From Octopus sinensis (Eukaryota): a stretch of DNA of 64,000 nucleotides. The stretch covers positions 23,560,001-23,624,000 of the forward strand of contig NC_043018.1 of NCBI RefSeq assembly GCF_006345805.1, read 5' to 3'. How positions within the stretch are numbered: position 1 is the stretch's first letter; each line of letters opens with the position of its first letter. Below are positions 32,265 through 62,164 of this stretch, one piece after another. Position numbers and translations under genes: made by a program. The notes under the pieces were generated by a model. It did no database searches. It saw only the letters and a program-made list of their open reading frames with translations, and was not told where the DNA came from.

Positions 32265-32299
<35 letters not shown>

Positions 32300-32472: not shown

Positions 32473-32545
<73 letters not shown>

Positions 32546-32952: not shown

Positions 32953-32993
<41 letters not shown>

Positions 32994-33658: not shown

Positions 33659-33694
<36 letters not shown>

Positions 33695-36538: not shown

Positions 36539-36733
36539 AATTATAAATAAGAACAAAAGAAGGAAATTTCCTATGCCAATATGCTGAAAAAATAGACTTT
36601 AGATTGTCTAACCACATATAATATTTTTCACTGTATTTATAGTGAAAAATATTGTATGTGGCTAGACGATCTAAAGTCTATTTTTCAGCATATTGGCATA
36701 GGAAATTTCCTTCTTTTGTTCTTATTTATAATT
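36539..36733. repeat. Fold-back element (arms ~93 bp)
   Basis: AATTATAAATAAGAACAAAAGAAGG...TTTTTCACT / AGTGAAAAA...CCTTCTTTTGTTCTTATTTATAATT with a tiny loop. Confidence 0.92.
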
Positions 36734-37310: not shown

Positions 37311-37354
<44 letters not shown>

Positions 37355-37671
37355 GTGAGAAAAAGGGAGAGACGGGGACAAAGTGAAGTGCAAAGTAAGA
37401 AAGGCAAAGAAATGTAAGTGAGCGGGGAGAGAGAGTGTTGTAGAAGTCATACAAAGTTTAGTGAAATGTGTACTTACATATAAGAGAACATAGTGTACGT
37501 ACACCGCTATATATATGTATATATATAAATAAAAATATACAAAATGGGACAAGAACGCAAAACATCCAGAAGACGATACAAAAAACACGGACAGGTCATT
37601 TGAAACCTTTAATCTTCAGTCAAGAACCGGATGATCCTCACAATTTCAGCTGTGGCCAGATTGGAGTAATC

Positions 37672-38800: not shown

Positions 38801-39301
38801 ATATTAGAAGAAATAAGGTACTCAGAAATCTGGATGGTTTTATATTTACAGATTTTTATTAATATGTCACATGTTTTTATAAATCATATATTAGCGCTAG
38901 CATCCACTTTAGTGGATTCTTCAGATTGAATTTTTTCAGATTTGTCTCTTTTTATAATATTATTGAGTGTGTAGGGGTGGAGAGAGATATAGGTTAGTAA
39001 AAGAGGGTGATATGTGTGTGTGTGTGTTTGCATCTTTATGCTTGTTGCTTGTGTTTGCCCTCCCTGCCGCTGCCTACCACTTCATAGTTGGAGCTAGTTT
39101 GTTTATGCCCCATGACTGGTAGTTTGGCAAAAGAAATTGACAATGAGTACAAGAATTAAAAATATTAATTCTGGGATCAATTGTTTGACTAAATAAACCT
39201 TTGAAAGGGGTGCCCCCACATGGCTGGAGTTCAATGGCCGAAACAAGCAGAAGGTAGAAAGTGCACACCAGTTCTGCATTATGAAAAATATGAAAGGATA
39301 C

Positions 39302-39446
39302 AAGCCGAAATTTGAAGCACCAACGATGTTTTCTCTGTGACAATACATAAATTATATTTCAAATTGATGCCACCTTCATATTTCTCAGTTAGAGCCGCAG
39401 GAATGTGGAGTCTGACTGTCAATTTCTCTTGGAGGCCAGCAGCAAT
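39302..39446 (-). CDS. SPAG17: SPAG17-like exon
   Basis: gcag|ATT acceptor, phase 0. IAAGLQEKLTVRLHIPAA...NLCIVTEKTSLVLQISA continues GP|VAAG as recalled for the SPAG17 C-terminus. The 3' boundary is uncertain: either a GTATCCTTT donor at 39301 or read-through to the stop at 39279. Confidence 0.8.
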
Positions 39447-40228
39447 CTGCATTGATAAACAATAAAAAAAAGAAATTAAACACACAATAGATACTTACTT
39501 TAAACTAATTACAATGCAACATCAAGGAATATGAGACATTTTGGCTCAGCATTTGTGGAACTGCTTATTTGGCATTGCAATTTCAACACTGGTTCATTTG
39601 ACATCAAACCTTCTAAAGCTTTCTAGTTTCTTGCTCTTTAACTCTCTCTCTCTCTCTCTCTCCTCCACCTTCCCTCTCTCTTTCTCTGTGTTCATGGGTG
39701 TGAGCATATTTCTCTCTTTGTGTCTGAAGAGAGGGAAACTGTTTATGTCAACCGTATTCAATTAATAACTTGTAATGTCTCTTCTCCTCCTCCCCCTCTC
39801 TCTCTCTCTGTATTCTTTTGTTATTTTACTTGTTTAAGTCACTTGACTGTGGCCATGCTGGAGCACTGCCTTAAAGGGTTTCAGTCAAAGAAATCGACCC
39901 TAGGACTTATTCTTTTGAAGCCTGGTATTTATTCTATCAGTCACTTTTGCTGAACTGCTAAGCTATGGGGATGCAAACACACCAACACTGGCCATCAAGT
40001 GATGATAGTGAGACAGAGATATAAAGACACGCACATAATAACTATATATACATATATACACACACACACACACCACACACACACACACAATGTGCTTTTT
40101 CCAGTTTCCTTCTATTAAACCCTCTCACAAAGCTTTGCTCAGCCTGTGACTATAGTAGAAGACACTTGCCCAAGGTGTCAAATAGTGGGATTGAACCTGA
40201 ACCATGTGGCTGCAAAGCAAGCTTCTTA

Positions 40229-40459
40229 TTTCTTTGTTGCCCACAAGGGACTAAACATAGAGGGAACAAACAAGGACAGACAAAGGGATTAAGTCGAATA
40301 CATCGACCCCAGTGCGTAACTGGTGCGTAATTAATCGATCCCGAAAGGATGAAAGGCAAAGTCGACCTCGGCGGGATTTGAACTCACAACGTAACGACAG
40401 ACAAAATACGGCTACGCATTTCGCCCGGTGTGCTAACGTTTCTGCCAGCTCGCCGCCTT
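40229..40459 (-). mobile_element. Family-B SINE nested in a family-A SINE
   Basis: A full family-B copy interrupts the family-A head; CTTCTTA is duplicated on both sides. Confidence 0.85.
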
Positions 40460-41756
40460 CTTACCACACAGCCACACCTGCGCCTATATTTCTGTGTGTT
40501 TGCGTGTGGAAAAGAGGAGGATTGAATGTGTGTATATACATATATGTGTGTGTACATAAGGGATTTTGTGTGTGTTTCTGTCCCATTGTTGAATTTTAAA
40601 TGAGTGTCCTCAAACAAGCAATGTCATTCATTTCCAATCTTTATGAAGACATGTCCAGATGTGTAGAAACATAAACTGCTTCGGGAACAATTGAGGATTG
40701 GCCTAAGAAATTCTGTTTTGATCCACACAAGCATGGAAAAGTGATGATGATGATGATGATGTCTATAAATTTCTGTAAGCATGTGCATATCATTTGCGAA
40801 TGCAGTACTGGAAAAAGATGTAAACTGTAGCAAGAAACCTGATAAACCAGTGATTTCATATGAAAATACCTTGAGTGATATTTGTTCAGTCCCCATTGCA
40901 CAGACAATTTCATGTCCCTCACATTACTACAAACTAATGATTACTCCAATGGATAGTGAGGCAGAGCTAAAAACACGAGGATCCAATGGAGAGAAGCAGA
41001 AAGGTCAGCCCAAAGTCGAAAACAGTGGAGAAAAGTCATTGAGGGCCTATGATCTATAGGAAGCAAAAAGGCTTAAGTAATAAAGCCTCCACCTTGAAGA
41101 GTAACTTACTAGTTGTAGCCATGACCAAAGGCAACCCTAAATAACCACAAAGCTAAAAGTTTGAGAAGAACAATGGTACAGTCACTTAATGATTTCTAAT
41201 ATGTCACCCACTGTAAAAAGTCAAGCTCCTTCCCAAGTCATATAGACTTACAGAGCCACTTTCCTGGTTTCCATGGCATATAAATTCCCCACCTGGATGG
41301 GATGCCAGTCCCTTGCAGGGTTAACTTATTTTTGCCAGCTGAGTGGACTGGAACAATGTGAAATGAAGTGTCTTGCTCAAGAACACAATGCATCACCCAG
41401 TCCAGGAATTGAAATCACAATCTTACAATCATCATTATCATCATTGTTCGACCGTGGTCAAGACAATGGAATTTACCATGCTACGCCAGACTTCACGGTC
41501 CATCATAGCATTATGGAGGTCCTGTTGCTGGATGCCTGTATCCCTGGAAATTACATCAGGGTAGGAGAGTGTGCGCCCTCTGGTATTGCGAGTAGATGGC
41601 TTCCAGAGGAGAAGAGTAGAAATTGCCTCGTTTTCAGCTCTACGACAATCATGAGTCCTACACCCTAACTACTAATCCACGCACCTCCACAGAAATATGC
41701 ACACCAAGGTAAAATAAAAGAAAAAAAGTAAAAAAAAAAAGCAATACATTACTTAC

Positions 41757-41999
41757 AGGTCCAAGTCGGTAGAAAACTTTCAAGCCAGAAGTAGGAGGTG
41801 GTTGTTTTATTTTAAAGCGGCACGAATCGACACCAATATTTCTAAGAAAGAAGAATTTTTCATAGGTCTGACCCACTTTGATTTTACCAAACTGAAGCTC
41901 TTTCACAGATAGTTCAAGGGACTTGCTAAGTTTCATCCTGTCCTTTTCTTGGAGAGACGAACCAGCGAGTCTGCTATCGATCGGTTTGACATTGTGAGA
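41757..41999 (-). CDS. SPAG17: SPAG17-like exon
   Basis: ttcatttccag| ... |gtaagt; 243 nt, phase 0-0. SHNVKPIDSRLAGSS...LQFGKIKVGQTYEKFFFLRNIGVDSCRFKIKQPPPTSGLKVFYRLGP matches the recalled SPAG17/PF6 C-terminal motif (N.GVD.CRF.VKQPPPSTGLKV.Y.PGP). Confidence 0.9.
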
Positions 42000-42588
42000 C
42001 TGGAAATGAAGACAGAATTAAGAGACCAAAAGATACTGGCAAGAAGACGCACTGACGCACATGAAATGCAATGCAAATGCACTCAATACAAATGTTGGTT
42101 TGTTTATGTCCCTATAGCTTAGTGGTTCTGGAAAAGAGACCAATAAAATCAGTATCAGACTTTAAAAAAGGATAAGTACTGGGAGTCAGTCAGTTTGATT
42201 AAACTTTTCAAGATGGTGCCCCAGCATGGCCACAGTCCAATGAGTGAAAACAAGGAAAAGGTAAATGATGAAACCCTTGCTGCCAACATAAAAGGGGTCA
42301 CAAATACAATGATGTTGATGATGATGACTACAACTAAAGTGATGATAATGACAACAACGATAATAATGATGACAATGATGATGGCGATGATGATGACAAT
42401 GGTGGTGATGATGGTGGTGGTGGTGATGATGACGGTGGTGGTGGTGGTGATGATGATGATCATGATAGCAATCACAATATTGATGATGGAAGTGGTGGTG
42501 ATGGTGGTTGTAATGATGATATGCATCCAACAAGCAAAATATTTCAACTAACAATAAATTTTTTTAAAAACCCCAAAAAAACCCTTAC

Positions 42589-42695
42589 CATTGGAAGCAA
42601 GTTCGTTTCGCATGGTATCTCTGATGAGAGGTTTTCTGATGTAGAAATGAACAGTTTCGGTAGGAGTGTAGGAGTTGAAGTATCTAGTGATGTAG
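42589..42695 (-). CDS. SPAG17: SPAG17-like exon
   Basis: tctttttttttaag| ... ATG|gtaagg; 107 nt, phase 1-0, open frame (A)TSLDTSTPTLLPKLFISTSENLSSEIPCETNLLPM. Phases fit both neighbouring exons. Confidence 0.7.
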
Positions 42696-42947
42696 CTTAA
42701 AAAAAAGAGAAAGACATATGTACAGACATGCCAACAGATATACACACACATTAGTAGTATAAACAGAATATATACACACACACACACACATATATATATA
42801 CACATACACACATATACACACAAATTATTATACATATATATATACACACACACACACATATTCACATATATATAAACACACATATATACATACATACATA
42901 CATACATATAAACACACATATATACATATATATACACGCACATATAC

Positions 42948-43378
42948 ATTTCATTGGACACTAAACTCTGCTTGCGAAGACCTGTTGAGGCAAGTGAAAT
43001 TGAAATCAGGAGCTCTGAGAGTACCATCTGAGCATGATCGTTGCCAGAGCAGCTGACTGGCTTCTGTGCCGGTGGCATGTAAAAAGCACCGTTTGAGCGA
43101 GATCGTTGCCAGTGCCGCTGGACTGGCTCCTGTGCAGGTGGCACATAAAAGCACCATTTAAGCGTGACTGTTGCCAGTACCGCCTGACTGGCCCTTGTGC
43201 CGGTGGCACATAAAAGCACCCACTACACTCTCAGGGTGGTTAGCATTAGAAAGGGCATCCAACCACAGAAACCATGTCAAATCAGACTGGGGTCTGATGC
43301 AGCCTTCTAGCTTGACAGTCCTGGTCAAACCATCCAACCCATGTCAGCATGGACAACAGACACTAAATGATGATGATA
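42948..43378 (+). mobile_element. RTE LINE 3' UTR fragment
   Basis: Matches 38260-38790 (TCATTGGACACTAAACTCTGCTTGC...). Confidence 0.85.
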
Positions 43379-44074
43379 ATATATATTGTTTCACACATGT
43401 ATCCTAAAACTGAATCAAACTTATTTGTGCGAAATTGGTGAATTACCAGCTAGTATAAAATAAATATATATATATATATATATCATTATCGAAATCGAAT
43501 TGAACCAGCCAGGATCCCTGGTCTGGTGGTACGTAAAAAGCACTATCCGACTCGTGGCCGTGGCACGTAAAATACTCCAATGCGACCGTACGACAGGCAC
43601 CCATGCCAACCCCCTTTGCTTGTGAGGACATGTTGGGGCAAGCGAAATCGAAATCGAATTGAACCAGCCAGGATCCCTGGTCTGGTGGTACGTAAAAAGC
43701 ACTATCCGAATCGTGGCCGATGCCAGCACCGCCTCGACTGGCTTCCGTGCCGGTGACACATAAAATACACCAATCTGACCATGGCCGTTGCCAGCCCCGC
43801 CTGGCACCTGTGCAGGTGGCACGTAAAAAGCACCCACTACACTCACGGAGTGGTTGGCGTTAGGAAGGGCATCCAGCTGTAGAAACATTGCCAGATTAGA
43901 CTGGAGCCTGGTGCAGCCTTCTGGCTTCCCAGAACCCCGGTCGAACCGTCCAACCCATGCTAGCATGGAGAACGGACGTTAAACGACGATGATGACGATG
44001 ATGATATACATATATATCATAATAAGAAATACTAAATTTCTAAATCTCTCGTAGAGACGTACGGTGGTGGGGCG

Positions 44075-44404
44075 ATAGAATGGTTGTATACTGTCAATCT
44101 AACACGAACGTGACAGTAGGGGGGGTACACCACCGCTGTATAGCCCTAGGAAGCATTGACGACTCCTGATGGCTTTTCACATTTTTCCCTGTGTCCTTAT
44201 ATACATTTACGAAGGGGAGACAAACACCCCCGGCCGCCGGAGCTGCATCTAGGGACACGTGTTTCAGGATCATTGTATATAAGGACACAGGGAAAAATGT
44301 GTCAAAGCCATCAGGAGGCGTCGATGCTTCCTAGGGCTATACAGCGGTGGTGTAGCCCGCTACTGTCACGTTCGTGTTAGATTGACAGTATACAACCATT
44401 CTAT
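44075..44404. repeat. Fold-back element (arms ~130 bp, loop ~66 nt)
   Basis: ATAGAATGGTTGTATACTGTCAATCTAACACGAACG...TCCTTATATACA and its reverse complement; (TA)n is adjacent. Confidence 0.93.
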
Positions 44405-45290
44405 ATATATATCATTATATATATATATATACTGTGTATATTATGACCTTTGTACCTCTCTCCTTCTTACACTATCATCACATCTATGCTCTGATCCTTG
44501 TTACTTGTGAGTATACCCTGGCACTTCACCATCTCTCTCCTGCTCTCTCTTACACTTTTGGTGTCTATCTCTCTCTCTCTCTCTCTGAGGTACATGGTTA
44601 CTGAGTAACCATGTACCTTCTCTATAACAAGACACCTATTTATGCCTCTCTATTTCTCTGTTACACTATGACCTTTCATCATCTGATACTGAATCACCAT
44701 CTGTTTCTGCCTCTCTGTCTCTTTATCACACTCTAACCTTTCACCCTCTGACACGAGTTCCCCTTCTCAAGAGCCCCTGCCCCTCTCACAGCTCCATGTC
44801 TTGTGAGTTACTTGGTGGCCCTGCTAGTGCTGGTACCACAAAAAAAAGCCTCCAGTCCACACTGTAAAGTGGTTGGCATTTGGAAGGGCATCCAGCTGTA
44901 AGAATCATGCAAAAACTGACCTCGCCTTTGCTACTGCCACATAAAAAGCACTGAGTTCACTCTGCGGAGTGCTTGGTGCTAGGAAGGGCATCCAGCCATA
45001 AAAAAACCTTGCCAAAACAGACACAGTTGCATAGGGGACTTTCTCTACCTGGCAAGCTCCAGTCAACTGTCTTACCCATGCATACATAGAAGATGGATGT
45101 TAAACAATGATGATGATTACAATGATGATATATGCTGTAATATGTTACAATAAATAACTGTATATGTGTTGTTTGTATACATACATGCTTACATATTATA
45201 TATGTACATGTTTTTTGTGTTTATGTATGCACGTGATACTTACATATATATATATATATTTAAAAAAGGAGATGTGGAACACGAGTTGTG

Positions 45291-45497
45291 ATATATAAAA
45301 AAGGAAATGAAGAAAATGCTGACAAAATAATTTAAGTAATTTAAGTAATTTAATTAGGTGAAAGTTCTTTTTACTAGTTGCGCATTTGTTATGCTTATAA
45401 CAAATGCGCAACCGGTAAAAAGAACTTTCACCTAATTAAATTACTTAAATTACTTAAATTATTTTGTCAGCATTTTCTTCATTTCCTTTTTTATATA
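45291..45497. repeat. Fold-back element (arms ~100 bp)
   Basis: Near-perfect palindrome centred on TTGTTATGCTTATAACAA (~45386-45403). Confidence 0.93.
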
Positions 45498-46440
45498 TAT
45501 ATATACATATTTATTACCTATAGGTGCTGAATGCCTTTGCCATAGTTGTGGCTTAATGGGCGATAGATATACCTCAGAAACTTCATCTCTACCTACGGTG
45601 CCTGAATAATGAACAACAGAAGGTCATTGATGGAAAACAGTGTTGGAGAGCAAAGTTACAAGTTAATGTTAGCAATGTTAATGGTCAATAACAGAAGTCA
45701 ATGTTAGCAGACACTGGTCAGAAGATGGCACTGGAAGCAAATGTCAGGTGTTTCAGGAAACCACAATATATCTTTTAGCATTTACCTGTTTCAGTCATTT
45801 GATTGTGACCATGCTGGGGCATCAAGTTGAAAGGTTTTAGTGGGAGAAATCGACCCCAGGACTTATTTTTTTAAAGCCTAGTACTTATTCTATCAGTCTC
45901 TTTTGCCAAACTGCTAAGTTGCAGGGACATACACACACCAACATCAGTTATCAAGCAGTGGTGGAGATCACACACACACACATATTATAGATATGTATGC
46001 AGAAATGAAAAGAAGTAATTAACTGCTGAATATAACTGGATATAAATCTCTGTTCTCCTTTATTATAAATTCAGTGTGTGTGTGTGTGTATGATGGGCTT
46101 CTTTCAGTTTCCGTCTACCAAATCCACTCACAAGGCTTTGGTCAGTCTGAGGCAACAGTAGGCTACTGTTAAGTTATGAGGACGTAAACACATCACCATC
46201 GGTTGTCAAGCGATGTTAGGGGGACAAACACAGGCACACAAACATACATACATACATACATACACATATATACGAGAGGCTTCTTTCAGTTTCCATCTAC
46301 CAAATCCACTCACAAGGCTTTGGTAGGCCCGAATAGAAGACACTTGCCTAAGATGCCATGCAGTGGGATTGAACCCAGAACTATATAGTTGGGAAGCAAG
46401 CTTCTTACCACACAGCCACACTTATATATATGTGTATGTA

Positions 46441-46488
<48 letters not shown>

Positions 46489-47225
46489 CGCAGGAGTGGC
46501 TGTGTGGTAAGTAGCTTGCTTACCAACCACATCATTCCAGGTTCATTCCCACTGCGTGGCACCTTGGGCAAGTGTCTTCTATTCGGGCCTACTAAAGCCT
46601 TGTGAGTGGATTTGGTAGATGGAAACTGAAAGAAGCCTCTCGTATATATGTGTATGTATGTATGTATGTATGTTTGTGTGCCTGTGTTTGTCCCCCTAAC
46701 ATCGCTTGACAACCAATGGTGGTGTGTTTACGCCCTCATAACTTAACGGTTCGGCAAAAGAGGCCAATAGAATATGTACTAGGCTTACAAAGAATAATTT
46801 GCTCGACTAAAGGCAGTGCTCCAGCATGGCCACAGTCAAAATGACTGAAACAAGTAAAAGAATTAATAGTATATAAAATAAGAATGCTTTATGATGCAAT
46901 CAAATTATTCATCAATAAAAAATGTGTTTAAAACAGATGTAGTGAACCTTTGACCCATTTGAGTTATTCTATATAAACATCATATCTGGAACCTTCCTTG
47001 TATTGAATCTGAAACTTACATTGGATTGTGAAACTCCACACTGGTGTGCATGGGTATATAATTTCATGTCTACACATATGCGTAAGTGTATGAATATGTC
47101 CATGTATACATGGGTATATATATATGGATGTGTTTGTATATGGTAGATGCACAGATCTTGGCCCTCATCTGGTCTCCTCCATATTAAACAAATCATATCA
47201 AATCCTACAAATAATTAATGACTAT

Positions 47226-47264
<39 letters not shown>

Positions 47265-47464
47265 GGGAAAATTCCCCAAAAAAAACAAAAGATGAAGAGA
47301 GGTGGTGTAGACAAAAATGTATTAGTATAATGCTCAGTAAGTGAAGAAGTCTTTAACATTTCAAGCCTACGCTCTTCCAAAGAAATGAACACAAAAAGAA
47401 ACAAGGATAGAAAATAAAGAATGTGTAGTGGCTAGCGATCTATCATCTATATATATGCTCAGGA

Positions 47465-48470
47465 GCAATAAACACTGAAAATATGCAGAGAACAACTTCC
47501 GCCACATTCCAGGGAGAAAAACTAAAAGTAGTTGATAGCTTCCGTTACCTAGATGACCAAGTCAGTAGCAGGGGAGTGTGCACTGAAAAGTGTAGGTACT
47601 AGAATAAGAATACCCTGGGCAAAGTTCAGAGAGCTCTTACCTCTGCTGGTGACAAAGGGTCTCTTGCTCAGAGTAAAAGGTAGACTGTACGATGCATGTG
47701 TACGAACAGCCATGCCATATGGCAGTGAAACATAGGCCGTGACTGCTGTGGACATGCGTAAGCTTGCAAGGAATGAAGCCAGTATGCTCCAATGGATGTG
47801 TAATGTCAGTGTGCATACTTGACAGGATGTAAGTACCTTGAGAGAAAAGTTGGCCCTAAGAAGCATCAGATGTGGTGTGCAAGAGAGAAGATCACGCTGG
47901 TATGGTCATGTGGGGAGAATGGATGAGGATAGCTGTGTAAAAAAAGGGTTGAGGGAACCTGTGGAAAAGGTAGACCCAGGAAAACCTGGGATGAAGTGGT
48001 GAAGCACAACCTTCAAACATTAGGCCTCACTGAGGCAATGACTAGTGACAGAGACCTTTGGAAATATGCTGTCCTTGAGAAGACCCAGCAAGCCAAGTGA
48101 GACCATAACCTCATGGCCTATGCGAGGGATGTAACTAGCCCACTTATGCATATCTTTCCTTCATTGGACTCTAAATTCTGCTTGCGAAGACCTGTTGAGG
48201 CAAGTGAAATTGACATCAAATTTGATGACTGGCATCCGTGCTAGTGGAGTGCTAAGAGCAACATCCGAGTGTGATCATTGCCAGAGCAGCTAACTGGCTT
48301 CCATGCCGGTGGCACATAAAAAGTACCATTTGAGTATGATCGTTACCAGCGACTCCTTAGTGGCACTTGTGCCGTAGGCACATGAAAAAACATTAGAGCG
48401 AAGTCATTGCCGGTGCCACTGGACTGGCTCCTGTGCAGGTGGCATGTAAAAAAACACCATTTGAATATGG
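47465..48470 (+). mobile_element. Truncated RTE LINE copy
   Basis: FQGEKLKVVDSFRYL..., WAKFRELLPLLVTKGL..., LYDACVRTAM; same family as 34103. Confidence 0.9.
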
Positions 48471-48509
48471 TACCTATGTGTGTATATATTTGTGTGTATG
48501 TATATATAT

Positions 48510-48935
48510 ATCACCTTGATCACCTTGACCGACCAGTCCGTCAGGTGTCCATTTGACACCGCTGGTCACAGCATGCTGTCCACTCCTCTCTGGATCACAC
48601 CTTTCACATCCATGTGATCCCAATCGTCCTCCTGAAATCGTAACTCCACCATCGTGGAGGCCTTTCCAGGTCGTCGTGTCCGCTCACGCGGGTACCACTC
48701 GACAACTGCGCGGGTCCATCGATTATCGGTGAGCCAGGCGACGTGTCCAGCCCATCTAAACTTGCTGCGTGTATACTCTGCGATGACATCCCTCACGCCA
48801 GACTTCTTTCTTATGATCTCACTACTGATGTGCTCTCTCAACGAGATACCAAGCATTGACCTTTCCATGGCTCTTTGAGCTGTTACCAGTCTCTGCTCTT
48901 CTCTCTTTGTTGTAGCCCATGTTTCACAGCCATGT
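48510..48935 (-). mobile_element. 3' end of a second RTE-clade LINE family
   Basis: MERSMLGISLREHISSEIIRKKSGVRDVI...KFRWAGHVAWLTDNRWTRAVVEWYPR...RW; tail ...GGTCGGTCAAGGTGATCAAGGTGA followed by (TA)n. Confidence 0.85.
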
Positions 48936-49535
48936 ATATATATATATATATATATATATCATCATCGTTGTCATTTAATGTCCACTTTCCATGCTGGCAT
49001 GGGTTGGATGGTTTGACCAAGGACTGGCAAACCAGGAGGCTGCACCAGACTCCAATCTGATCTAATAAGGTTTCTACAGCTGGATGCCCTTCCTAATGCC
49101 AACCACTCGAGAGTGTAGTGGGTACTTTTTACATGCCACCAGCACAGGGGCCAGTTAAGTGGCACTGGCATCGACCATACACGAATAATGCCTTTTACGT
49201 GCCACTGGCACGGGAACCAGTCAGGCAGTACTGACAACAAATATATATATCATATGTATATAATTGCATGTATATACATATGTACAAGGTTGTATAATAC
49301 ATACGTATATATTTATGTATGTATGTATATTTTATATATGTATGAATATATGTTTGTCAGCAAGTACTTATATTCATTGAGCACACTATCTGACTGTTAC
49401 CTGTGCCTTGTATATTGAAATACCTGGATTCTAACTAATGAATCTCACAATTAAATAATGATGTTTATATATATAACTAGATTATTTTATGCGCAACTCC
49501 ATTGTCTCCCGAGACAAAAAGGATGCCAACAACAA

Positions 49536-49903
49536 TCTATATATATAAAGCTGAAGTTGTCTGTGTGTGGCAGGTTTTGTAGCCTTCAACTAACACTATC
49601 TCTGAGACCCTGCGGTGTAGGTTGACCAATATTGAGAGTATGATAGAAGAAGGTTTGCTCTTCATTCCGTAGAAGATAAAATTTAAATTGGACCATGTTA
49701 AGACCAAAAATTATTTACATCAAAAAGGTGCTTTTTTTCTATGAAAATCCTGATTTTTTATGATTTTTTGACTCCTGTGTCACCATTTTTCGGTGTATTT
49801 CAACCAGAAAAATGTTCACTTAAAGAGAATAAGCTACATAATGCAAAAATTCCAATTCTAAAGGGTCGAAACAAACCCAAGCAATGCCGGGCAATACTGC
49901 TAG
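49536..49903 (+). mobile_element. Non-autonomous Helitron
   Basis: A|TCTATATATATAAAG... start; sub-terminal GC hairpin CCCAAGC-aat-GCCGGG ~10 nt before the CTAG|T end; no TSD. Confidence 0.8.
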
Positions 49904-50413
49904 TATATATATAAATAAAGATAAGATGATTATTTAAAATACCGATCATATCAAGTGGCTAGCATGGGTGCATTTTACATTTCACTGGCACAAGTGTCCT
50001 TGCATGTTATTGATATAAGTGCCATTTACATGACTCTGGCACAGGGTCTACTGAGAATTCTGACAGAAATGAGGCAATGTGTAAGGTAGGAGAGGTGGGC
50101 ATGGTAGTTAAAGACATGCATGTATGCATGGATGGCTACAATTTCATTGTGTTTGTCGTGTCTTCTTAAGCATGGCAAATCACCAGAAGTCTTGGTTCCT
50201 TGTCATCTCTGTGAGGCTCAACAGCCAAAGATAATCTTTCACCGCTTTGTCCAACATCTTACTGGGTCTACTCTTCCCACAGGTTCCCTCCACAGAGATC
50301 AGCATTTCTTTATGCTGCCATCTTTATCCATATGCATCACATGACAATACCAGCACAGTTTTTCCCTCTTGTACCCTACATCTCATGCCTCTTATACCCA
50401 ATTTTCCTCTTAA

Positions 50414-50633
50414 CCCTTTAGTGTTCAAACTGGTCATATCCGGCCCAAATAATCTACCTGTTTTCTGTTAAAACTGCCCAGATTTGGTATCTCACACCAA
50501 CCTATAATGTCAATCTAAAAACAGGTGATAACATCATCGAAACCTTAAAGCTACAAAATAATGCATGATTAGCTCAAAACAATATGGATGAATAAATATT
50601 ATATTTGACAGAATAATCTGAATGCTTGAAGGG
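50414..50633. mobile_element. TTAA-specific (piggyBac-like) MITE inserted in a degenerate RTE fragment (~50090-50735)
   Basis: TTAA|CCCTTTAGTGTTCA ... TGAATGCTTGAAGGG|TTAA. Another copy begins at 63957 (TTAA|CCTTTTAGCATC). Confidence 0.75.
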
Positions 50634-51863
50634 TTAAGCTGTCATACGTGCACACTGATATTGCACATCAAGAGGAGCATGTTGGTTTCTTTTCTTACAA
50701 CCCTCCACATGTCCTCTACAGTCACAGCCCATGTTTTGTGTGCGTGCGTGTGTAAGAGGGTCATCAGTGGATTATATATCCGAAGAAGAAGCACACTCTA
50801 ACAATTGGAGCAGTAATGTATTTACATGCATCTAAATATATGTCCCAGTCATAGAATGACCAATGGTTTCACATCCATAAAACTTAAGCTTTATAGACAA
50901 CTCCTCAGACTCCAATAGCCACGGACATCTAACCTCTCTTCAAACAGGAGGTAGAAAACTGTTACGGTCAGTTAATATATGTACATATTATTTTTCACTT
51001 GTTTCATTCATTAGATTGCAGCCATGGTAGGGCACCACCTTGAAGGGTTACAGTCAACGAACTGACCCCTGTTCATATTATTTTATCAAACCTGGTACTT
51101 ATTCTACCACAACCTTGGCGGAATTTGAACTCAGAATGTAAAGACAGACGAAATCCCACTAAGCATTTCGCCCAGCATGCTAACGTTTCTGCCAGCTCAC
51201 CACCTTACTAAAATCTGTACTCTACAACAAGTATTGAGTAATCTTTCAGTTAAATCCTAAATTGATTTTTAGTATATCTAGACATAAGAGTGAACATTAA
51301 TATTTTTTTTTTCTTTACTACCCACAAGGGTCTAAACACAGAGGGGACAAACAAGGACAGACAAAGGGATTAAGTCAATTACATTGATCCCAGTGCGTAA
51401 CTGGTACTTAATTTATCGACCCCGAAAGGATGAAAGGCAAAGTCGACCTCGGCGGAATTTGAACTCGGAACGTAACGACAGACGAAATACAGCTACGCAT
51501 TTCGCCCGGCATGCTAACGTTTCTGCCAGCTCGCCACCTGAACATTAATATTATTTATTAATGGCATGGCTGTGTGGTACGAAGCCTGGTTCTAGGTTCA
51601 GTCCCATTTAATCTCAGGCCAAACAAAGAAAGACTGGATTTGGTAGACCGAAAAGGAGTTTGTTGTGTACATTTTTTTATTGGTTTCAATCATTTGACTG
51701 CGGCCATGCTGGAGCATTGCCTTTAGTCTAACAAATTGACCCCAGGACCTATTCTTTTTTTAAGCCTAGTACTTATTCTATTGGTGTCTTTTGCTGAACC
51801 ACTAAGTTTCAGGGATATAAATATACCAACATCAGTTAAGTGATGGTGGAAGGACAAACACAG

Positions 51864-51900
<37 letters not shown>

Positions 51901-54457
51901 AATATCGTGCCAGTGGCACATAAAAAGCACCATCTGATTGTGGCCGTTTGCCAGCCTCGTCTGGCACGTAAAAAGCACCCACTACACTCACGGAGTGGTT
52001 GGCATTAGGAAGGGCATCCAGCCGTAGAAACATTGCCAGATCAGACTGGGCTTGGTGCAGCCTTCTGGCTTCCCAGACCCCAGTTGAACCGTCCAACCCA
52101 TGCTAGCATGGAAAGCGGACGCTAAATGATGATGATATATACGATGACCTTCTTTCAGTTTCCATCAACAAAATTTACTCAAGGCTTTGGCTAGCCTGAG
52201 GCTATAGTAGAAGACACTTGCCCAAGGTGCCATGCAGTGGGAACTGAACCTGAAACCATATGGTTGGGAACCACGCATCTTACCACACAGCCACGCCTGC
52301 ACCTATATATATAGTTGAAATTTACACAAAAATAAAAGACAAAGACAGGTGTATAAACAATAAACAGGTGCTTGGCGCTCGGGAAGGTGGGAGAGTCTTT
52401 TACGTTTTGAGCCAACACTCTTCAACAGAAAGGAACACAAGGAAATAAACAGAAAGAGAATAAAAAAAACTTGTGGATGTAGCAGTCGGCATTTTGTCCA
52501 TCTTTACATTCTGAGTTCAAATTCTGCTGAAGTTGACTTTGCCTTTCATCTTTTTACCTTTCATAAAATAAGTACCAGTTGAGGTCTGGAGTTGATGTAA
52601 TCAACAGCCCTTCCCTCAAACCTGCAGGCCTTGTGCCAAAATTTGAAATCAATATTATCAACATGTGGAACTGTTAATCCCAACATTTTTTTTTCTCCCT
52701 TTCTCCATTTTTCCTCCCATCCCTTTCTGTCAAACAGCATAGGCTCAAAATGTCAAAGAGAAAGGCTCAAAATGTCGAAGAGCCTCCCATTCTTCCTGAG
52801 CATTAAACTAATACACCTTGTTTGTTGTTGCTTCACCTGTCTTTGTCTTTTGTTTGGACCATATATAAATGTGTGTGTGTGTGTGTGTGTGTGTGCGCGT
52901 ATGTATGTGTGCATGGTTGACAGTTGTCAATTATGGAACACGACTGTCATTACATAAACCTGACGATTGTGTAACACATGAAAGTACTAGTTTATTTCAA
53001 CATTGTAAAACTACAAAAATAGTAAAGAATAAAAAGTGAAAATCAGACTAGGATGACACTCCCAGTATCAGTTTCTTTTATCACTCTTTCTTTCTTTCTC
53101 TCTTCCTCTGTGTGTGTGTCTGTCTGTCTGTCTCTTTCTCTCTCTCTCTCTTCCTTTGTTTGTCTCTTTCTCTTTCTCTCTCTCTCTGTTTTTTTCACTT
53201 TCTCTCTCTGGTTCTTCTGTCATCACTCTTCTCGCATCTATTCAGCCTCTTGGCAATTATGCCTCTAAAGACGTAACATATATTAGTGAGTACTCTTTAA
53301 TTTGAAAGAATTTTGAGGTGTGTATGCAAGTGACATTGAAGAACACACACACATACACAAAAACGGTCTCCATAGAGTTTCTGCCTTCTAAGCTTTCCTT
53401 CACAAAGTATGGGTCAGTCAACGTTTTGAATAGAAGACACTTTGCCAAGGTGCCATGCAGTGTGATGGGACCTCAAACCCCACATTGAAAACACAACCAA
53501 AGATTAAAAAAAAACACTATAAGTTTGAAATAGAGGAGTGAAAACAAATAGGGCCAAATGAGAGCAGATTGGGATGGAGTTTGCTATAGTCAGAAGCCCT
53601 TCCTACAGCCAACCCCCACTTGTTTCCAAGTGAAGTAATAGACTCCCAGTTTATAGAACAACAAACAGCCCAGACACGTTTATGGTGGGGAACTGGAAAC
53701 AAAAAAACAACACTATATGAATAAGTCTTTTGTTTAAAAAGATTGTGCAACATATCAAGAGTTGTCATTCAGCCCAGACATGTTTTTGCAGTGGACTGCC
53801 AGCAAATGACACTGTTAGCAAAACCACTGCTTACAGTAAGTTAGGAAACACTTGTGAGTATGGAAGCAAATATGAACTCACTAACACAATCAAACATGTG
53901 AGTTACCCATGTGTTTTTCTTTCTTGGTTCACCTTTCTTATCTCTTTTCTTTCCTTTTTTTCTCCTCTTCCCTGGACTTTTCTCTGTATATCCAACAAAG
54001 GGACATGACCAACACATTATACTTTTACTCTATAATTTTCCCTTTATAACTTCTTTTACCTTATTTGAGTATCAACATAATAATATTGGTTCCAAATTTT
54101 GGCACAAGGCCAACAATTTCGACCCCCAATATGCAACTGGTACTTAATTTATCAATTCCGAAAGAATGAAAGGCAAGGTCGACCACAGTGGAATTTGAAC
54201 TCAGAACATAGAGATGGAAAAAATGCTACTGAGCATTTTTCCTGGTGTCCTAACAATTGGAAGAAGCAAGGGCAAATAAAACACTTGTAGCGTTTCATCT
54301 GTCTTATGTTCTGAGTTCAAATTCCACCAGAGTCAACTTAGCCTTTGATTCTTTATCAATCTAATAACATTAACTGTTAACCTCCTTTGGACCTTCATTT
54401 TTTTTCTATTTAAATTTGTCTTTTGTTATTGATCTCTCTCTCCCTCTCTCTCTCTAT

Positions 54458-54490
<33 letters not shown>

Positions 54491-54498
54491 TATATATA

Positions 54499-54742
54499 TG
54501 GAGGCGCAATGGCCCAGTGGTTAGGGCAGCGGACTTGCGGTCGTAGGATCGCGGTTTCGATTCCCAGACCGGGCGTTGTGAGTGTTTATAGAGCCAAAAC
54601 ACCTAAAAAGCTCCGGCAGGGGGTGATGATCCCTGCTGTACTCTTTCACCACTCTTTCTTCTGTTGGCCTGCTCGCTTAGCCAACGGGGTGGCATTGTTA
54701 CCAGCGATGTATAACAACATCTGATGGTCTGGTCGGTCATGT

Positions 54743-54745
<3 letters not shown>
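54499..54745 (+). mobile_element. tRNA-derived SINE (family E) with an RTE-like 3' tail
   Basis: Head GGCGCAATGGCCCAGTGGTTAGGGCAGCGGACTTGCGGTC...GGTTTCGATTCCC (A/B boxes); tail ACATCTGATGGTCTGGTCGGTCATGTGA; inserted in (TA)n. Confidence 0.8.
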
Positions 54746-54776
<31 letters not shown>

Positions 54777-55746
54777 CACGCATGCACACACACGTTATAT
54801 ATAAGCACATGCATGGCTGTGCTGTAAGAAGCTTGCTTCCCAACCACATGGTTCCAGGTTCATTCCCACTGCATGCTGCATGGCACATTGGGCAAGTGTC
54901 TTCTACTATAGCCTCAGGCTGACCAAAATTTTAGGAGTGGATTTGGTAGACGAAAACTGAAAGAAGCCTGTCGTATGTGTGTGTGCATGCATGTCTGTGT
55001 TCATCCCCCACCACCACTTGACAACCAGTGTTGGTGTTTATGTTCCCGTAACTTAGCAGTTCAGCAAAAGAGACCAATAGAATAAGTACCAGGCTTAAAG
55101 AAATGAAACAAAAAAAGGAGTATTGGAGTTGATTAGTTCGACTAAAATTCCTCAAAGTGGTGACCATCATCATCATCATTTAGCATCCATTTTCCATGCT
55201 GGCATGGGTTGGATGGTTTGATAGGAGCTGCCAAGGCAGAAGACTGCACCAGGCTTCAGTGTCTGTTCTGGCTGGGTTTTTTATGGTTGGATGGCCTTTT
55301 TAACACCAATGATTCTATAAAGGGAACTGAGAGCATTTTACGTAGCACCAGCACTGGCAAGGTCTGTTTTGGCATCAGGATGATTACACACACATATATA
55401 TTATATACAGTGTACTTTTCCATGATGGCAAGATCAACAAAAAAAGTATTCCATATGGTGAGAAATAAATATTATTTGATAAACACAATATATGTATTTA
55501 TGTGCTACTATTAGTTTTATGTGCTGAGAGCATGCCAAACAGTATTTTTTAGCATGTCTGGTGTCCTAATACAATCATCAGACACTGTCCCCATGCCATA
55601 ATGAACTAAAAATGGGATGATAGGATGAGGGGAAAAAGTGAGAAAAGGCGAGAAAGAAGTAGATATAAAAGGTGAAAGGTTGAGAAAAACCCAGAAAACA
55701 CAAAAGAAATCAGAAAGAAACAAAAGGGAGAATTATATATATATAT

Positions 55747-55777
<31 letters not shown>

Positions 55778-55875
55778 ACGGGAAGCTTTATGAAAATAAA
55801 CAAAAGACGAAGGCAGGTGGAAAACAAACGAACAATTGTATTAGTATGGCGCTCAGGAAATATAAATAAAACAAG

Positions 55876-55913
55876 TCTTTAACGTTTCGAGCCTACGCTC
55901 TTCAACAGAAAGA
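55876..55913 (-). ncRNA. Minimal type-I hammerhead-like motif (A6U core, extra A before stem II)
   Basis: TCTTT-CTGTTGA-A-GAGC gtag GCTC-GAAA-CG-TT-AAAGA; all three stems can form. Confidence 0.55.
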
Positions 55914-57221
55914 TACACAGAGAGAGAAAAACACAGAAAGAAGGAGAAAAAAAAAATGCGTGCAGTAGCTAACGAATCAACATGGCGATATATATATATA
56001 TAAATAAAAATCAATCAACATCAATGGTAATTGTAGCTGTGATACCAGTACCGGTGGCACATAAGAGAACCATCCGAACATGGCCATTGCCAGCGCCGCC
56101 CTGACTGGCTTCCGTGCTGGTGGCACGTAAAAAGCACCCACTACACTCATGGAGTGGTTGGCATTAGGAAAGGCATCCAGCTGTAGAAACATTGCCAGAT
56201 CAGACTGGGCCTGGTGCAGCCTTCTGGCTTCCCAGACCCCAATAGCATCGTCCAACCCATGCCAGCATGGAAAGTGGACGCTAACGATGATGATGATGAT
56301 ATATGTGTGGTGAAGAAGATCATGGGTGCACTTGAGCTACCAGTTCCTATGAAAGAAAAGGAAAACTCTTGTCATCAAAACCTGTCCCTGTGTCTGTTGT
56401 TGAAAGGGTCACTGTACTATTGTGGGTTTAGGCAAGTAAAGTAGGCCAAGCTTAATATCCTCAAGTTGGTCTGCAACTACATTCACATCTGACATGTGGC
56501 ACTCTGTGTACCTGTACAGGCAATACAGGCAACAGTGATTTGATGGAAAGAGTGAGCTAATGTACAGCACAAACGTTTGATCACCATAAATGATTTGTGC
56601 AGGTTGTTCAGAAAAGCAGAGGCTCAATACAATATAGAGTTCTTGTTGCAAAATCTTCATCGGTTAATTATGATGGCAGGGTTCACCGTGTGTGTGTGTG
56701 TGTATTTTTATTAAAACAATGGCTTTGACAAGACTAATTATGTTTCATACCTGCTCTGTCTTTCAAGCCTCTCTCAGTAAAATGGTGGTTTAAGGAAGAG
56801 GACACGTGTGCATGCACACACACACATGCATGCGCATGCACTCACACACACACACACACACACAAATGACTGACTTCTTTCAGTTTCTTATTTCTTTATT
56901 GCCCACAAGGGGCTAAACATAGAGGGGACAAACCAGGACAGACAGACGGATTAAGTCGATTACGTCAACCCCAGTGTGTACTTTATTTATTGACCCCCGA
57001 AAGGATGACAGGCAAAGTCGACCTCAGCGGAATTTGAACACAGAACGTAACGGCAGGTGAAATACCGCTAAGCATTTCGGCCGTCGTGCTAATGATTCTG
57101 CCAGCTCAGCACCTTTGCTGACTTCTTTCAGCTTCTGTCAACCAAATCCACTCTTAACGCTTTGGTTGGCCCAAGGCACATGACAGCTGCCTAAGGGACT
57201 GAACCCAAAACCAGACACAAA

Positions 57222-57760
57222 CTCACCCAGGTGGCAGCCAATTTGTCAGTAATAATGAGAAAATAAGGTACATATTCTTCCTACCCAATTTATACACCCA
57301 TAATCCAACCAATGAATCAAGAAAAGAATCGTAACCAATGAAGAGAATTAGATGAAGTTTCCATGGTGACAGAAGAGACCAAGAATATAAGGGAAAACAA
57401 AAGTGTGGACAAATAGCTCTGGACAACATCAAGAACATCAAGTCAGCAATATTCTGTTTAACAGCATTCATAGAAGGCATTAAGAATACCCTTTGAAGCC
57501 AATATTTGGTAAATACTTCAGCATGATGATGTGGTAGAATGCAATTTTATAGGATTTGAAGAAAGTGAGTTTCATTGTATATTTCAAGGGGCAGGAGGTA
57601 CAGATGTCACTGAAGACAATGTCAACTCCTGGTTGGAAGACACAGAAGACACTGGATACCAAATATTAATGGAAAAAAATAAATTGCTGTTGGTGACAAC
57701 AGTTACTGAGGATGAAGAGGGAAACAATGAATCGTTATTCGTGAAACAAACTCTCTAAAC
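57222..57760 (+). pseudogene. Degraded pogo/Tigger transposase remnant
   Basis: FLPN/(frameshift)TPIIQPMNQ at ~57277-57322 resembles the FLPPNTTS.IQPMDQ motif; downstream WLEDTEDTGYQILME resembles the acidic Tigger C-terminus. Confidence 0.55.
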
Positions 57761-58719
57761 AAACTCGAACACACATACACAAGGTATGTGTGTTGTTAGT
57801 TTGTGGGTTGTGCTAAGTTACTGTGATGTAAACACACCAGCTCCAGTTGTCAAGTGGCAGTGGGGATCAAACAGTGACACCAAAGACACACACACACACA
57901 CACACATACATATTTATGATGGGCTTCTTTTAGTTTCCATCAACCAAATCCACTCACAAGGCTTTGGTCAGCCCAGGGCTATAGTAGAAGACACTTGCCC
58001 AAGGTGCCACGCAGTGGGACTGAACCCGGAACCATGTGGTTGGTAAACAAGCTACTTACCATACAGCCACTCCTGCGCCTATATATATATAGCACCTAGG
58101 TGCAGGTGTGATTGCACCTATACTATATATATATATTTTTGAGTGTTCTGTTCTGTAGTCTCAGCCTGAGACTACAGAACAGAACACTTGCCCATGGTGC
58201 CATATAGAGGGACTGAACCTGAAACCATGTGGTTGGCAACCAAGCTACTTACCACACAGCCATGCCTGTGCCTTTCAAATTTATCCACTCCTTGAAGACA
58301 TCAGGTTCATTTGTTATATTCCACAAGTAAATGAACTTAATTTATGGTATTAACTTTTTAATATTGCATAATGGCCTTTCCAATAATTTTATGAGACTCA
58401 TTACTATGTACCCTTTGTAGTAGATTTATAAGCAGGACAAGTTTAGTTATTTCCTGTAGACTGTCAAAATGACGAACAACCTTCATTGCTGATCAAATCT
58501 TATTGAATTCTCATCAGAGGTGTCTCCATCAATTTGACCAATTCCAAAGAAACCAGTTGCCAATTTGTTTATATATTCAACAATTTCAATAGCTACAGGA
58601 AACTGGAGTGGCTAATTTGCATGACACAAGTGTTAATACTTTATCTAATATGAAGGCCCTGTCAACAAGGGTCTCAGTCTACACAGTATCAAGGTATATA
58701 TGTAACATGCTGGCATGTG

Positions 58720-59056
58720 TTGGACTCAAAGACATACAGCATCTCAAAAGAGTCCAGAAGCTGGCTACCCGCATGGTTCATGGTCTCAAGAATTTGTCTT
58801 ATGAAGAAAGGCTGAAGACGCTCAACCTTTATTCTCTAGAAAAACGCCGCCGCCATGGTGATCTCATTCTCGCTCACAACATCATAAGCGGAAAGTATAA
58901 CCTCTCGAAAGAGCTGTTCTTCACTCCTGCTCCAGAGCGTCGGCTGCGGGGTCATTCCGAAAAGCTCTACCTGCAACGATTTCATCTCAATCGAAGGAGA
59001 GGAGCTTTCTCCGTCCGGGTTGCGGATCTGTGGAACAAGCTGCCAGACGAGATGGT
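58720..59056 (+). mobile_element. CR1-type LINE ORF2 C-terminal fragment
   Basis: KDIQHLKRVQKLATRMVHGLKNLSYEERLKTLNLYSLEKRRRHGDLI...LRGHSEKL...RRGAFSVRVADLWNKLP. Confidence 0.9.
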
Positions 59057-61633
59057 TGGAGATATGCAGCACATTGCTGTACTTGAGAAGACCCGCCCAT
59101 CACAAGAGATTTGAGATCCTAAAAGCAAGGTGCCAGATAAAAAGCAATGGTCTGGGTGCTGGTGCCATATAAAAAAGCATTAGTGATGGTGTCATGTAAA
59201 AACACCCAGTACACTCTGTGGAGTTGCTGACATTATGAAGGGCATCCAGCCATAGAAACCAAGCCAAAACAGCCTATGGAACCTGGTGCGGCCCCTGGCC
59301 TTGCCAGTTCCTGTCAAGCAGTCCAACACATGCCAGCATGGAAAACACATTAAATGATGATGATGATGATGGTGATGATGGTGAACCTATATAGTAGGTT
59401 TAGAGAGCTAATTCAGCTATTTCTCCATAGACTGTTCCTTCTTCCAATTCCCTTCACACCAAACTGATATTCACTGTATCCAACTCAAACCCCACCTCTA
59501 ATAACAAGTCACACTTTTCCCTCAAGTGCACCTGACCCACCCACCTTTTGTATTCCTCTATCCTTTTCTTTCTCTCATACTCTGTACCTAAACCTCACAT
59601 CACTCTCTTTCACTCCCTCACTCTCTCTTTCTCTCACTCAGTCACCTGCTCTCTCTCTCTCTCTTCCTCTCTCTCACTCACTCACATGCTCTCTCTCTCT
59701 CTCTCCCACTCACTCATACTCTCTCTCTTCCCAGATGGAGAAGCCATGTATCTACCTTCAGCAAGATACTTGTTCCAATCCCCACTATCATATGATGTTC
59801 ATATCCCTCAATTATATACCCCATTCACTTGAGTGGGGAGGGAAGGGTCTTGTCTTGCAAGTACTTGATGAACACATCAGTGCTGATGCCATGAAAAAAA
59901 TAACATCCAGTTACACTCTATGGCATGGTTGGAGTCAGGAAAGGCATCCAGCTGCAGAAACTATACTAACTCATCAATTCATGTTGATCCATCCGACCCA
60001 TGCTAGCGAGGAAAACAGGACGTTAAATGATGGTGATGATGTGATATAATGTTTACAGTATTTTCAATGATTTCATTATCATATATAAAGTCCAGTGCTC
60101 TTTTTTTAATTGCCTCTCTGGAAACTTGCAGACCATGTGTCTACACATGAAAACTCCTTATTTCTCTGTCTTGGTAATTATTTCTAACATAAGCACCAAA
60201 GCCAGAGAATTGAGGGAAAGGGGCTCAGTCTAAAATGATGACAAGCAAAGCTACCCCTGACAGGATTTGAACTCAGAACATTAAAGAGCCTGGAGAAATA
60301 CAGCAAAGTATTTTATCCAATGCTTTAATGACTCCAACAACTCCATCCCACTTCATAACTGATGTAACAAGCTATTTGGTGATAATTTTCTGATACTTTA
60401 AACTAATAAATATTATTTTTCCTGATGCTTCAAACTGACATTTCTTCAAACTTTTAAAATATCCTTTTGTTTTTGCAAAAACAAAAAACACAAAACAGGC
60501 ACAGGAGTGGCTGTGTGGTAAGTAGCTTGTTTACCAAAATCAAAACAAATCAAAATAGATGAACATCAATGGAATTTGTATCTTTGTGGTACCAGTGCCG
60601 GTGGCACACAAGAAAACCATCCGAACGTGGCCATAGCCAGTACCGCATCGACTGGCCTCCGTGCTGTGGGCACATAACAAACACCATCCGATCGTGGCCG
60701 TTCGCCAGCCTCATCTGGCACCTGTGTCGGTGGCACATAAAAACACCATCCGAGCGTGGCCGTCTGCCAGCCTCGTCTGGCACCTGTGTCAGTGGCATAT
60801 AAAAAACACCATCCGAGCGTGGCCGTTCGCCAGCCTCGTCTGGCACCTGTGTCGGTGGCACATAAAATCACCCACTACACTCTCGGAGTGGTTGGCGTTA
60901 GGAAGGGCATCCAGCTGTAGAAACACTGCCAGATCTGACTGGCCTGGTGCAGCCTTCGGGCTCCCCAGACCCCAGTTGAACCGTCCAACCCATGCTAGCA
61001 TGGAAAGCGGACGTTGAATGATGATGATGATGATGGTTCTGAGTTCATTCCCACTGCGTGACATCTTGGGCAAGTGTCTTCTACTATAGCCTCAGGCCGA
61101 CCAATGCCTTGTGAGTGGATTTGGTAGACGGAAACTGAAAGAAGCCTGTCGTATATGTGTGTATGTGTGTATATGTGTTTGTCCCCCCACCATTGCTTGA
61201 CAACCGATGCTGGTGTGTTTACGTCCCCGTCACTTAGCAGTTCGGCAAAAGAGACCGATAGAATAAGTACTGGGCTTACAAAAGAATAAGTCCCGCGGTC
61301 GATTTGGTCGACTAAAGGCGGTGCTCTAGCATGGCCACAGTCAAATGACTGAAACAAGTAAAAGAGTAAAACAAAATAACACAAAATTTACTTTAAGTAA
61401 AAAAATCGTTTTATTCTTGTTTAATTATATAAATGGTAAACGTGCGACTAAAACACAATCCCTTATTCTGTTAATTAATTGTCTCTGACACAAATCTGTT
61501 CAATTGTCTAATCGTTTACTATTACTAATGACAACCACTACCATCAACACCACAAAATTTGTACAGTACCACAGCTACAACAATCACTGTACTACAACAA
61601 TATCATAACAAGAGACATAGAATAATTACGCAC

Positions 61634-61780
61634 CAGGCCTTTCTGGAAAGTGAATATGTGAAATAGTTGGGGTCGGATTTGTGGGTCGAACAATTGTAGG
61701 TGAAGCAGTGCCTGAAGCATGCGCTGGAGACGGGTTGACTGGTCGCACTCCGTGGGGAGATTCAGCTTCTGCAATCTCAC
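61634..61780 (-). CDS. SPAG17: SPAG17-like exon (Pro-rich)
   Basis: cctttttcatttcag| ... G|gtgcgt; 147 nt, phase 1-1, (G)EIAEAESPHGVRPVNPSPAHASGTASPTIVRPTNPTPTISHIHFPERP. The phase fits the 42695 exon. The ORF track shows a different frame. Confidence 0.75.
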
Positions 61781-62164
61781 CTGAAATGAAAAAGGAAGGC
61801 TTTATTACAAATTGAAAATAAATGAAAATAAAATGAAAAAAAAAAATGGAAAAAAATGAAAAAAAACTGAAAAAAAATTTTTTTTTAAATGAAAAACAAT
61901 TTGAAAAAAATTTTTTTTAATTTTAAAAATGGAAAAAAAATTTTTTTAAATGAAAAAAAAAAAATTAAAAAAATTTTTTTAAATAAATAAAAATATAAAA
62001 ATAAAATAAAGTAAAATATAAAAATAAAAAATAAAAGAAAAAATAAAAGAAAATAAAATTTTTTTAAGTTGAAAAATAAAAAAATAAAATAAAATAAAAT
62101 AAAATAAAATAAAGAAAATATCTTATAATATAATATAATATATATATATATATATACATATATA

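Follow-up and report, generated by a model that had tools for sequence, protein, structure and literature searches.

A high-copy repeat of about 200 bp in octopus carries a minimal type-I hammerhead motif in which core position 6, canonically A, is U, a change that looks family-wide. Its copies lie in a TA context, include one head-to-head pair and have nearly fixed ends that flank an intact cleavage site. The reading favored here, with barely better than even confidence, is that the repeat is likely the pseudo-LTR (pLTR) end piece of a TA-targeting Penelope-like element (PLE), and that its hammerhead is attenuated and would cut weakly, either as a dimer or with the assistance of a protein. 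The class of element is ordinary in itself and the novelty resides in the U6 core. A lineage that has altered a near-invariant core base, kept the remainder and still multiplied represents a natural experiment on why PLEs retain weak hammerheads, whether as needed parts or as passengers. Cleavage by the U6 motif would broaden the hammerhead core consensus and show that counts based on descriptors are underestimates, whereas an inert motif would favour the view that PLEs can spread without cleavage.

In the window, that is, the whole 64,000-nucleotide stretch analyzed (Octopus sinensis contig NC_043018.1, positions 23,560,001 to 23,624,000 of the forward strand), blastn and nhmmer (E 1e-45 to 2e-34, the nhmmer profile being built from the same six window copies that it recovers) confirm a copy of the element at each of the six places given in the original prediction. 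Five of them carry the motif on the minus strand, the exception being the 52680 copy with its motif on the plus strand:

28826..29004, minus strand: copy with U6 and C7, G8 lost (the 28823 copy); TA on both sides
32798..32946, minus strand: decayed copy, position 6 is C, G12 lost
47265..47447, minus strand: decayed copy with U6 and G7, G5 lost; TA on both sides
52315..52488, minus strand: copy with U6 and U7 in which G12 is lost; left member of the head-to-head pair
52488..52660, no strand assigned: unrelated dispersed repeat, matched at 26 other places in the window, that separates the two inverted copies at their 5' ends
52669..52860, plus strand: inverted (52680) copy, right half of the head-to-head pair, with a 22-bp internal duplication through the hammerhead
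55778..55988, minus strand: best-preserved copy (the 55777 copy), flanked on either side by TA repeats and in sense orientation to the host gene

Five of the six copies start within about 20 alignment columns of one another; the unit is accordingly nearly fixed in extent and not randomly truncated, and all six span the cleavage site. Tandem (head-to-tail) copies are absent from the window. Summed identity to the 55777 copy amounts to 159/190 in the motif, 251/361 in the 3' flank and 148/263 in the 5' flank, a contrast between motif and flanks that is inflated by fast mutation of the U-rich flanks. The next nhmmer match, at 56608-56647 on the plus strand (E 0.026), is to the hammerhead part of the profile and is possibly a seventh, very old copy. 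Within the hammerhead of the inverted copy, the 22-bp duplication occupies 52728-52783 with 2.5 units, the third of which retains U6, C7 and G8; slippage may lie behind it, a possible cause being the resemblance of the 5' half of the core to the sequence following GAAA.

The hammerhead features, given in the coordinates of the best-preserved copy, are as follows:

55876..55913, minus strand: minimal type-I hammerhead motif with helix I of 4-5 bp, U6 core, extra A, 4-bp stem II with a 4-nt loop, GAAA, palindromic A15.1-C-G-U16.1 and N17
55905, minus strand: core position 6, U in place of the canonical A, compared across the six window copies and the contigs of four runs
55880..55881, minus strand: cleavage site predicted from the topology, 3' of N17 (55881), which is U here

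The metazoan PLE minimal hammerhead consensus comprises a U-rich flank, CUGANGAH, a G..C stem II, GAAAN-palindrome-NUH and an AU-rich flank (Cervera & De la Pena 2014, PMC4209133), and the minus strand of 55876-55913 fits it everywhere but at position 6, where U stands and not A. The predicted type-I topology with a palindromic ACGU is found whole in the 55777 copy and is of the Penelope minimal type. Helix I is formed by 55913-55909 with 55880-55876, the core at 55908-55902 reads CUGUUGA and is followed by the extra A at 55901, stem II pairs 55900-55897 with 55892-55889, and GAAA (55888-55885) leads through C-G-U (55884-55882) to N17 at 55881. Helix I ends at 4-5 bp without a conserved extension. 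Across the six copies the extra A after A9 is always present, the 10.1-11.1 pair is G-C in four, G-U in one and broken in one, and GAAA is followed by A-C-G-U and then by U, A or C at N17, never by G (A or U in the contigs). Paired cells make up 80% of helix I and 96% of stem II, the fifth helix-I pair being broken in four of the six copies. The rest of the core is intact in a single copy (G12 is changed to A in three, G8 to A in two and G5 to U in one), and most of the core losses in the window copies are at CpG sites. The earlier statement that the two best copies both give CUGUYGA does not hold, since the 28823 copy has lost G8 and reads CUGUCAA. The description of the core as atypical survives only for U6: the extra A and the palindromic ACGU both belong to the published PLE consensus, which leaves U6 as the sole atypical feature.

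A strict minimal-hammerhead descriptor that allows one change in the CUGANGA half matches the window once, at the 55777 copy, and gives no match on either strand of 150 windows simulated by an order-3 Markov model of it. As anticipated, CUGANGA-based searches miss the element: the CUGANGA descriptor does not match it and Rfam is likewise blind, with no hammerhead among the 150 of 214 window rows listed and none with the element alone. No second CUGANGA able to act in trans occurs within the element, and exact-pattern scans for the element gave no match in metagenome contigs, prokaryote genomes or viral contigs.

Position 6 is U in five of the six window copies, C in one and A in none. Beyond the window, 20 of 24 listed runs (11 studies, six organism labels) contain at least 60% of 15 sampled element words. 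In four runs under three organism labels, which may denote close relatives, 46,088 contigs (10,628 + 7,901 + 25,251 + 2,308) align at 80% identity or more, with only part of them covering position 6, with 418 loose-end rows outside the tally, and with a summed depth that is not a copy number. At 55905 no other base reaches 2% of depth in any of the four runs; the adjoining base, with a summed depth of 0.9-9 million, has its own variant. Five of the 38 motif sites are variable in the contigs: N17 (55881) changes from U to A in 55-87% of depth across runs, N7 (55904) changes from U to G in 8-9%, helix position 2.5 varies by 6-13%, position 1.4 by 3-6% and the CpG at 16.2 by 3-7%. Hundreds of contigs align over 55873-55912 only and then continue into mixed flanks, which we read as diverged subfamilies keeping a common core. 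These data agree with the proposal that U6 is fixed in the family and does not stem from decay of individual copies, within an alignment whose identity requirement would hide any A6 sister family that has a different stem II. A register shifted by three bases (U3-U4-G5-A6-A7-G8-A9) was considered and rejected: on inspection it breaks helix I and stem II, and it puts the 8-9% variant at 55904 on the invariant U4.

The probability that five variable sites among 38 include both N7 and N17 by chance is 0.014, a post hoc figure. Of the 12 cells that these two positions represent in the window copies, 6 deviate, compared with 5 of 150 cells at constrained positions outside CpG (Fisher p 2e-5, with classes chosen by the author; p = 0.002 when the two C7 cells are excluded as related to CpG). 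That all five variable sites fall outside the 13 core positions does not reach significance by itself (p 0.11), and variable sites are no rarer in the motif (5/38) than elsewhere in the element (16/171) in the contig data. Compensatory changes are seen at none of the 9 stem pairs among the six copies, whose stems are nearly invariant.

Insertion context points in the direction of PLEs, the clearest instance being the tract that adjoins the best-preserved copy:

55734..55777, no strand assigned: (TA)n tract at the 3' end of the element, likely insertion target

The 3' ends of five of the six copies lie within about 13 nt of a (TA)n run of at least three units, against 9.7% of background positions, which bears out the predicted TA targeting; 5' ends do so in three of the six, with copy ends set by eye and with one of the TA runs having only 3 units. 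The 52315 and 52680 copies form the single head-to-head (5'-to-5') pair, with another repeat between them. Targeting of (TA)n and inverted 5' copies are PLE traits (PMC4209133, PMC8557442). PLEs are common in octopus (PMC13282606, PMC8967140), and they make up 6.83% of the O. vulgaris genome in a study whose main text mentions no hammerheads (PMC13282606). The motif, the TA targeting and the one inverted pair make PLE membership likely, and from TA targeting together with the minimal motif we infer Neptune as the PLE clade of the element. Of the PLE or retrozyme lineage proposed originally, the former agrees with the PLE-type minimal hammerhead topology, while the latter fits poorly, the copies being not tandem and the hammerhead minimal. 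No RT with GIY-YIG and no PLE ORF was found next to the six copies among the selected ORFs scanned in the window. Protein searches with the open frame across the 52315 copy returned no genuine relative, and the three proteins matched by this frame were discarded as unrelated tandem-repeat proteins. The element's motifs did not appear in term searches of the PLE consensus supplement of Craig 2021 (PMC8557442).

The host locus is the gene SPAG17:

31269..61787, minus strand: 3' part of SPAG17, with coding exons 61787-61632, 45602-45516, 42696-42589, 41999-41751 and 39476-39282, and 31322-31269 in one isoform

The exon at 41999-41751 matches SPAG17, and along 67 residues it is 100% identical to a protein of Octopus vulgaris that shares its cluster with O. 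sinensis SPAG17; the cephalopod origin that had been suspected from the letters is thereby specified as octopus. One 16-kb SPAG17 intron contains four copies of the element, and a fifth is intronic in a single isoform; of the five intronic copies four are sense to the gene (too few for a test). The 28826 copy is situated about 2.3 kb past the last mapped SPAG17 coding exon. The last SPAG17 exon differs between the O. vulgaris and O. sinensis models.

With PLE minimal hammerheads (PMC4209133) the element shares type I topology, a helix I of 4-5 bp, the unpaired base A9/10.1, the G10.1-C11.1 pair, GAAA-C-G-U-H without helix III, the U-rich upstream flank, and an occurrence mostly as solo copies with some opposite-strand pairs. 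In contrast to U6 of the octopus element, A6 is present in all 44 rows of Fig. S3 compared, the core variant described there being U3-A8 (PMC4209133), and A6 is also present in all 34 rows of file S2 of Craig 2021 (PMC8557442). Since the architecture is that of a PLE minimal hammerhead but position 6 is not A, the element is filed as a variant and not as a canonical member. The octopus elements Hydra-1_Obim and Naiad_Obim/Ovul (Craig 2021, PMC8557442) resemble it in (TA)n preference and inverted 5' copies. The Hydra-1_Obim hammerhead differs in three respects, namely A6, a longer stem II and the presence of a real stem III, and Naiads are described without canonical hammerheads (PMC8557442). 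A natural pyrimidine at position 6 is shared with the A6C hammerhead of phage Bcep176 (PMC3088659, PMC7151607), which has C6, is a single phage sequence and shows slow, Mn-preferring activity, whereas the octopus element has U6 and is a high-copy animal repeat. Metazoan non-LTR retrozymes also consist of a short non-coding unit with a type-I hammerhead, are related to PLE pLTRs and occur as solo monomers (PMC7229834; Li et al. 2026, 10.64898/2026.07.22.740005); in comparison with them the element is non-tandem in the window and has a minimal rather than canonical ribozyme, lacking the canonical type-I hammerhead with extended helix I by which retrozymes are recognized. In the literature searched, from which Lünse 2017 (the largest PLE-variant catalogue) was left out and which excludes supplement file 1 of PMC4209133, bioRxiv supplements and Perreault Figs S6-S7, any of which could hold a case, there is no report of an A6U hammerhead or of a ribozyme of this octopus family. 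The passages covered from the reviews PMC6155905 and PMC6765202 and from PMC11014351 contain no U6 case.

Published changes at position 6 carry a heavy cost. The natural A6C hammerhead of phage Bcep176 is slow but active (Perreault 2011, PMC3088659); at 0.3 mM Mg a fast ribozyme slows with A6C from 0.30 to 3.6e-6 per min, but it reaches 0.33 per min in 10 mM Mg and 0.18 in 0.3 mM Mn (Naghdi 2020, PMC7151607). In a mutational scan every single change in the CUGA turn resulted in low activity (PMC9901934), and taken together with the drop in the A6C rate this means that the residual activity of the U6 motif may be nil. Folding models, which ignore tertiary structure, give a probability of the G5-C15.2 pair of 0.98 with U6 and of 0.02-0.10 with A6. 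In the predicted U6 monomer U4-G5-U6-U7 pairs with A14-A15.1-C-G and the open-core state lies 2.4 kcal/mol above the minimum; U6 is thus predicted to lock the monomer as an inactive hairpin or rod, and G7 or C7 beside U6 to weaken this lock. The predicted U6 dimer fold lies 5.7 kcal/mol above two monomer rods, compared with 0.9 for A6 U7 and 1.3 for U6 C7, a gap that depends on N7. Folding z-scores of the element are not significant, as is expected of a minimal motif.

The Anolis PLE offers a precedent for the route by which such an element could spread: its reverse transcription begins within the RNA, with uncut molecules as the principal template, and its hammerhead cleaves only with the protein, while ribozyme mutants still insert in vitro (PMC11167929). 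By the mechanism proposed here for the octopus family, a PLE RT/GIY-YIG protein would nick (TA)n, and RNA would be copied from a fixed internal start to the 5' end of the transcript, producing short solo copies. A transcript begun in the pLTR, combined with the internal start, would yield fixed-length copies across an intact cleavage site, matching the observation. The U6 change would have arisen in the master element prior to the subfamily split, lowering catalysis chemically and also pairing U4-G5-U6-U7 with A14-A15.1-C-G into the inactive monomer rod. Most transcripts would in consequence remain uncut and be copied whole, and the attenuated ribozyme would be no hindrance. A remnant of cleavage activity in master elements would account for the rest of the core being kept while N7 and N17 drift, and CpG decay would have killed most genomic copies. 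It is tempting to hypothesize, as a tentative extension of this mechanism, that the natural A6U hammerheads of this very large octopus family still cleave, with U6 acting as a monomer lock opened by dimerisation, Mn2+ or the element's protein. If so, the family would represent the first natural position-6 variant at high copy number in an animal, and CUGANGA searches would overlook whole retroelement ribozyme families.

The most serious competitor of an attenuated but functional hammerhead, although we regard it as doubtful, is a dead relic of PLE origin, in which U6 abolished catalysis in the master copy, high copy number was reached since insertion needs no cleavage, and the motif persists by descent or as an RT-bound hairpin. 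Insertion of the Anolis PLE in vitro is indeed unaffected by hammerhead knock-outs (PMC11167929) and published position-6 changes are very harmful (PMC3088659, PMC7151607, PMC9901934). The rod predicted for the U6 monomer, the cleavage site spanned by all six copies and the lack of covariation among 9 pairs also agree with such a relic, as does the sense orientation to host pre-mRNA of four of the five intronic copies, a count too small for a test. Against it, variation falls at N7 and N17, the positions left free by catalysis, with N17 never G; the core is kept in diverged subfamilies; and conservation does not extend to the rod itself, which the G7 and C7 variants weaken. The opposite extreme, a fully competent alternative core in which U6 is compensated by context, Mn2+ or the PLE protein and the monomer off-switch is released by dimerisation or protein binding, appears unlikely. 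A6C ribozymes are nearly normal in Mn2+ (PMC7151607), a PLE hammerhead is protein-assisted (PMC11167929), and U6 exceeds 98% of depth in three organism labels, but no compensating core change is visible, the dimer is predicted to be disfavoured, and even canonical PLE minimal hammerheads cut poorly as dimers (PMC4209133).

Two further explanations concern the identity of the element and not its activity. Derivation from non-LTR retrozyme monomers, each the product of one copying round of a circular RNA of ~200 nt, would account for the size and the nearly fixed ends of the copies, and solo monomers have been described (10.64898/2026.07.22.740005). We consider it more improbable still than a fully competent core: no tandem copies occur in the window, retrozymes are described with canonical hammerheads and PLEs with minimal ones (PMC7229834), and the head-to-head pair is a PLE trait. 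That the element is a SINE-like or other repeat resembling a hammerhead by chance would be in line with Rfam returning no hammerhead match and with the unremarkable folding z-scores; it is scarcely credible given the absence of descriptor matches in 150 simulated windows and the agreement with the PLE-specific extras.

Several other sequences in and beyond the window show hammerhead-like features. At 32310-32423 a near-perfect inverted repeat (108/114 bases) lies between TA tracts, each arm containing the 3' half of a hammerhead whose real stem III resembles that of Hydra-clade PLE hammerheads. This repeat probably consists of two copies of a second PLE family, head to head and fused within stem II, and it explains a sub-threshold mir-196 Rfam match. 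Another candidate for a hammerhead remnant, with a damaged core and a stem III of the Hydra type, is located at 29405-29440 on the plus strand. In the supplement of PMC8557442 the 3' end of the record preceding Naiad_Ovul has a stem and GAAAC with CUGAUGA downstream, an order unlike that of a type-I hammerhead, and is possibly a rearranged motif.

The remaining repeats of the window are of other kinds. A dispersed repeat with internal tandem units of 62-68 bp is present at 18514-18665, 33329-33527, 36340-36538, 43023-43220 and 60669-60867, the 33329 and 60669 copies looking closely alike. ORF fragments at 34868-35904, 37803-38102, 48566-48958, 24056-24331, 58593-59114, 62543-62887 and 29788-30123 are presumably LINE- and Tc1/mariner-like. 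Pfam places RVT_1 at 35536-35904 and, weakly, a Mos1 HTH at 62543. A satellite with a 147-bp unit occupies 24443-25031 in 4 copies with 96% matches.
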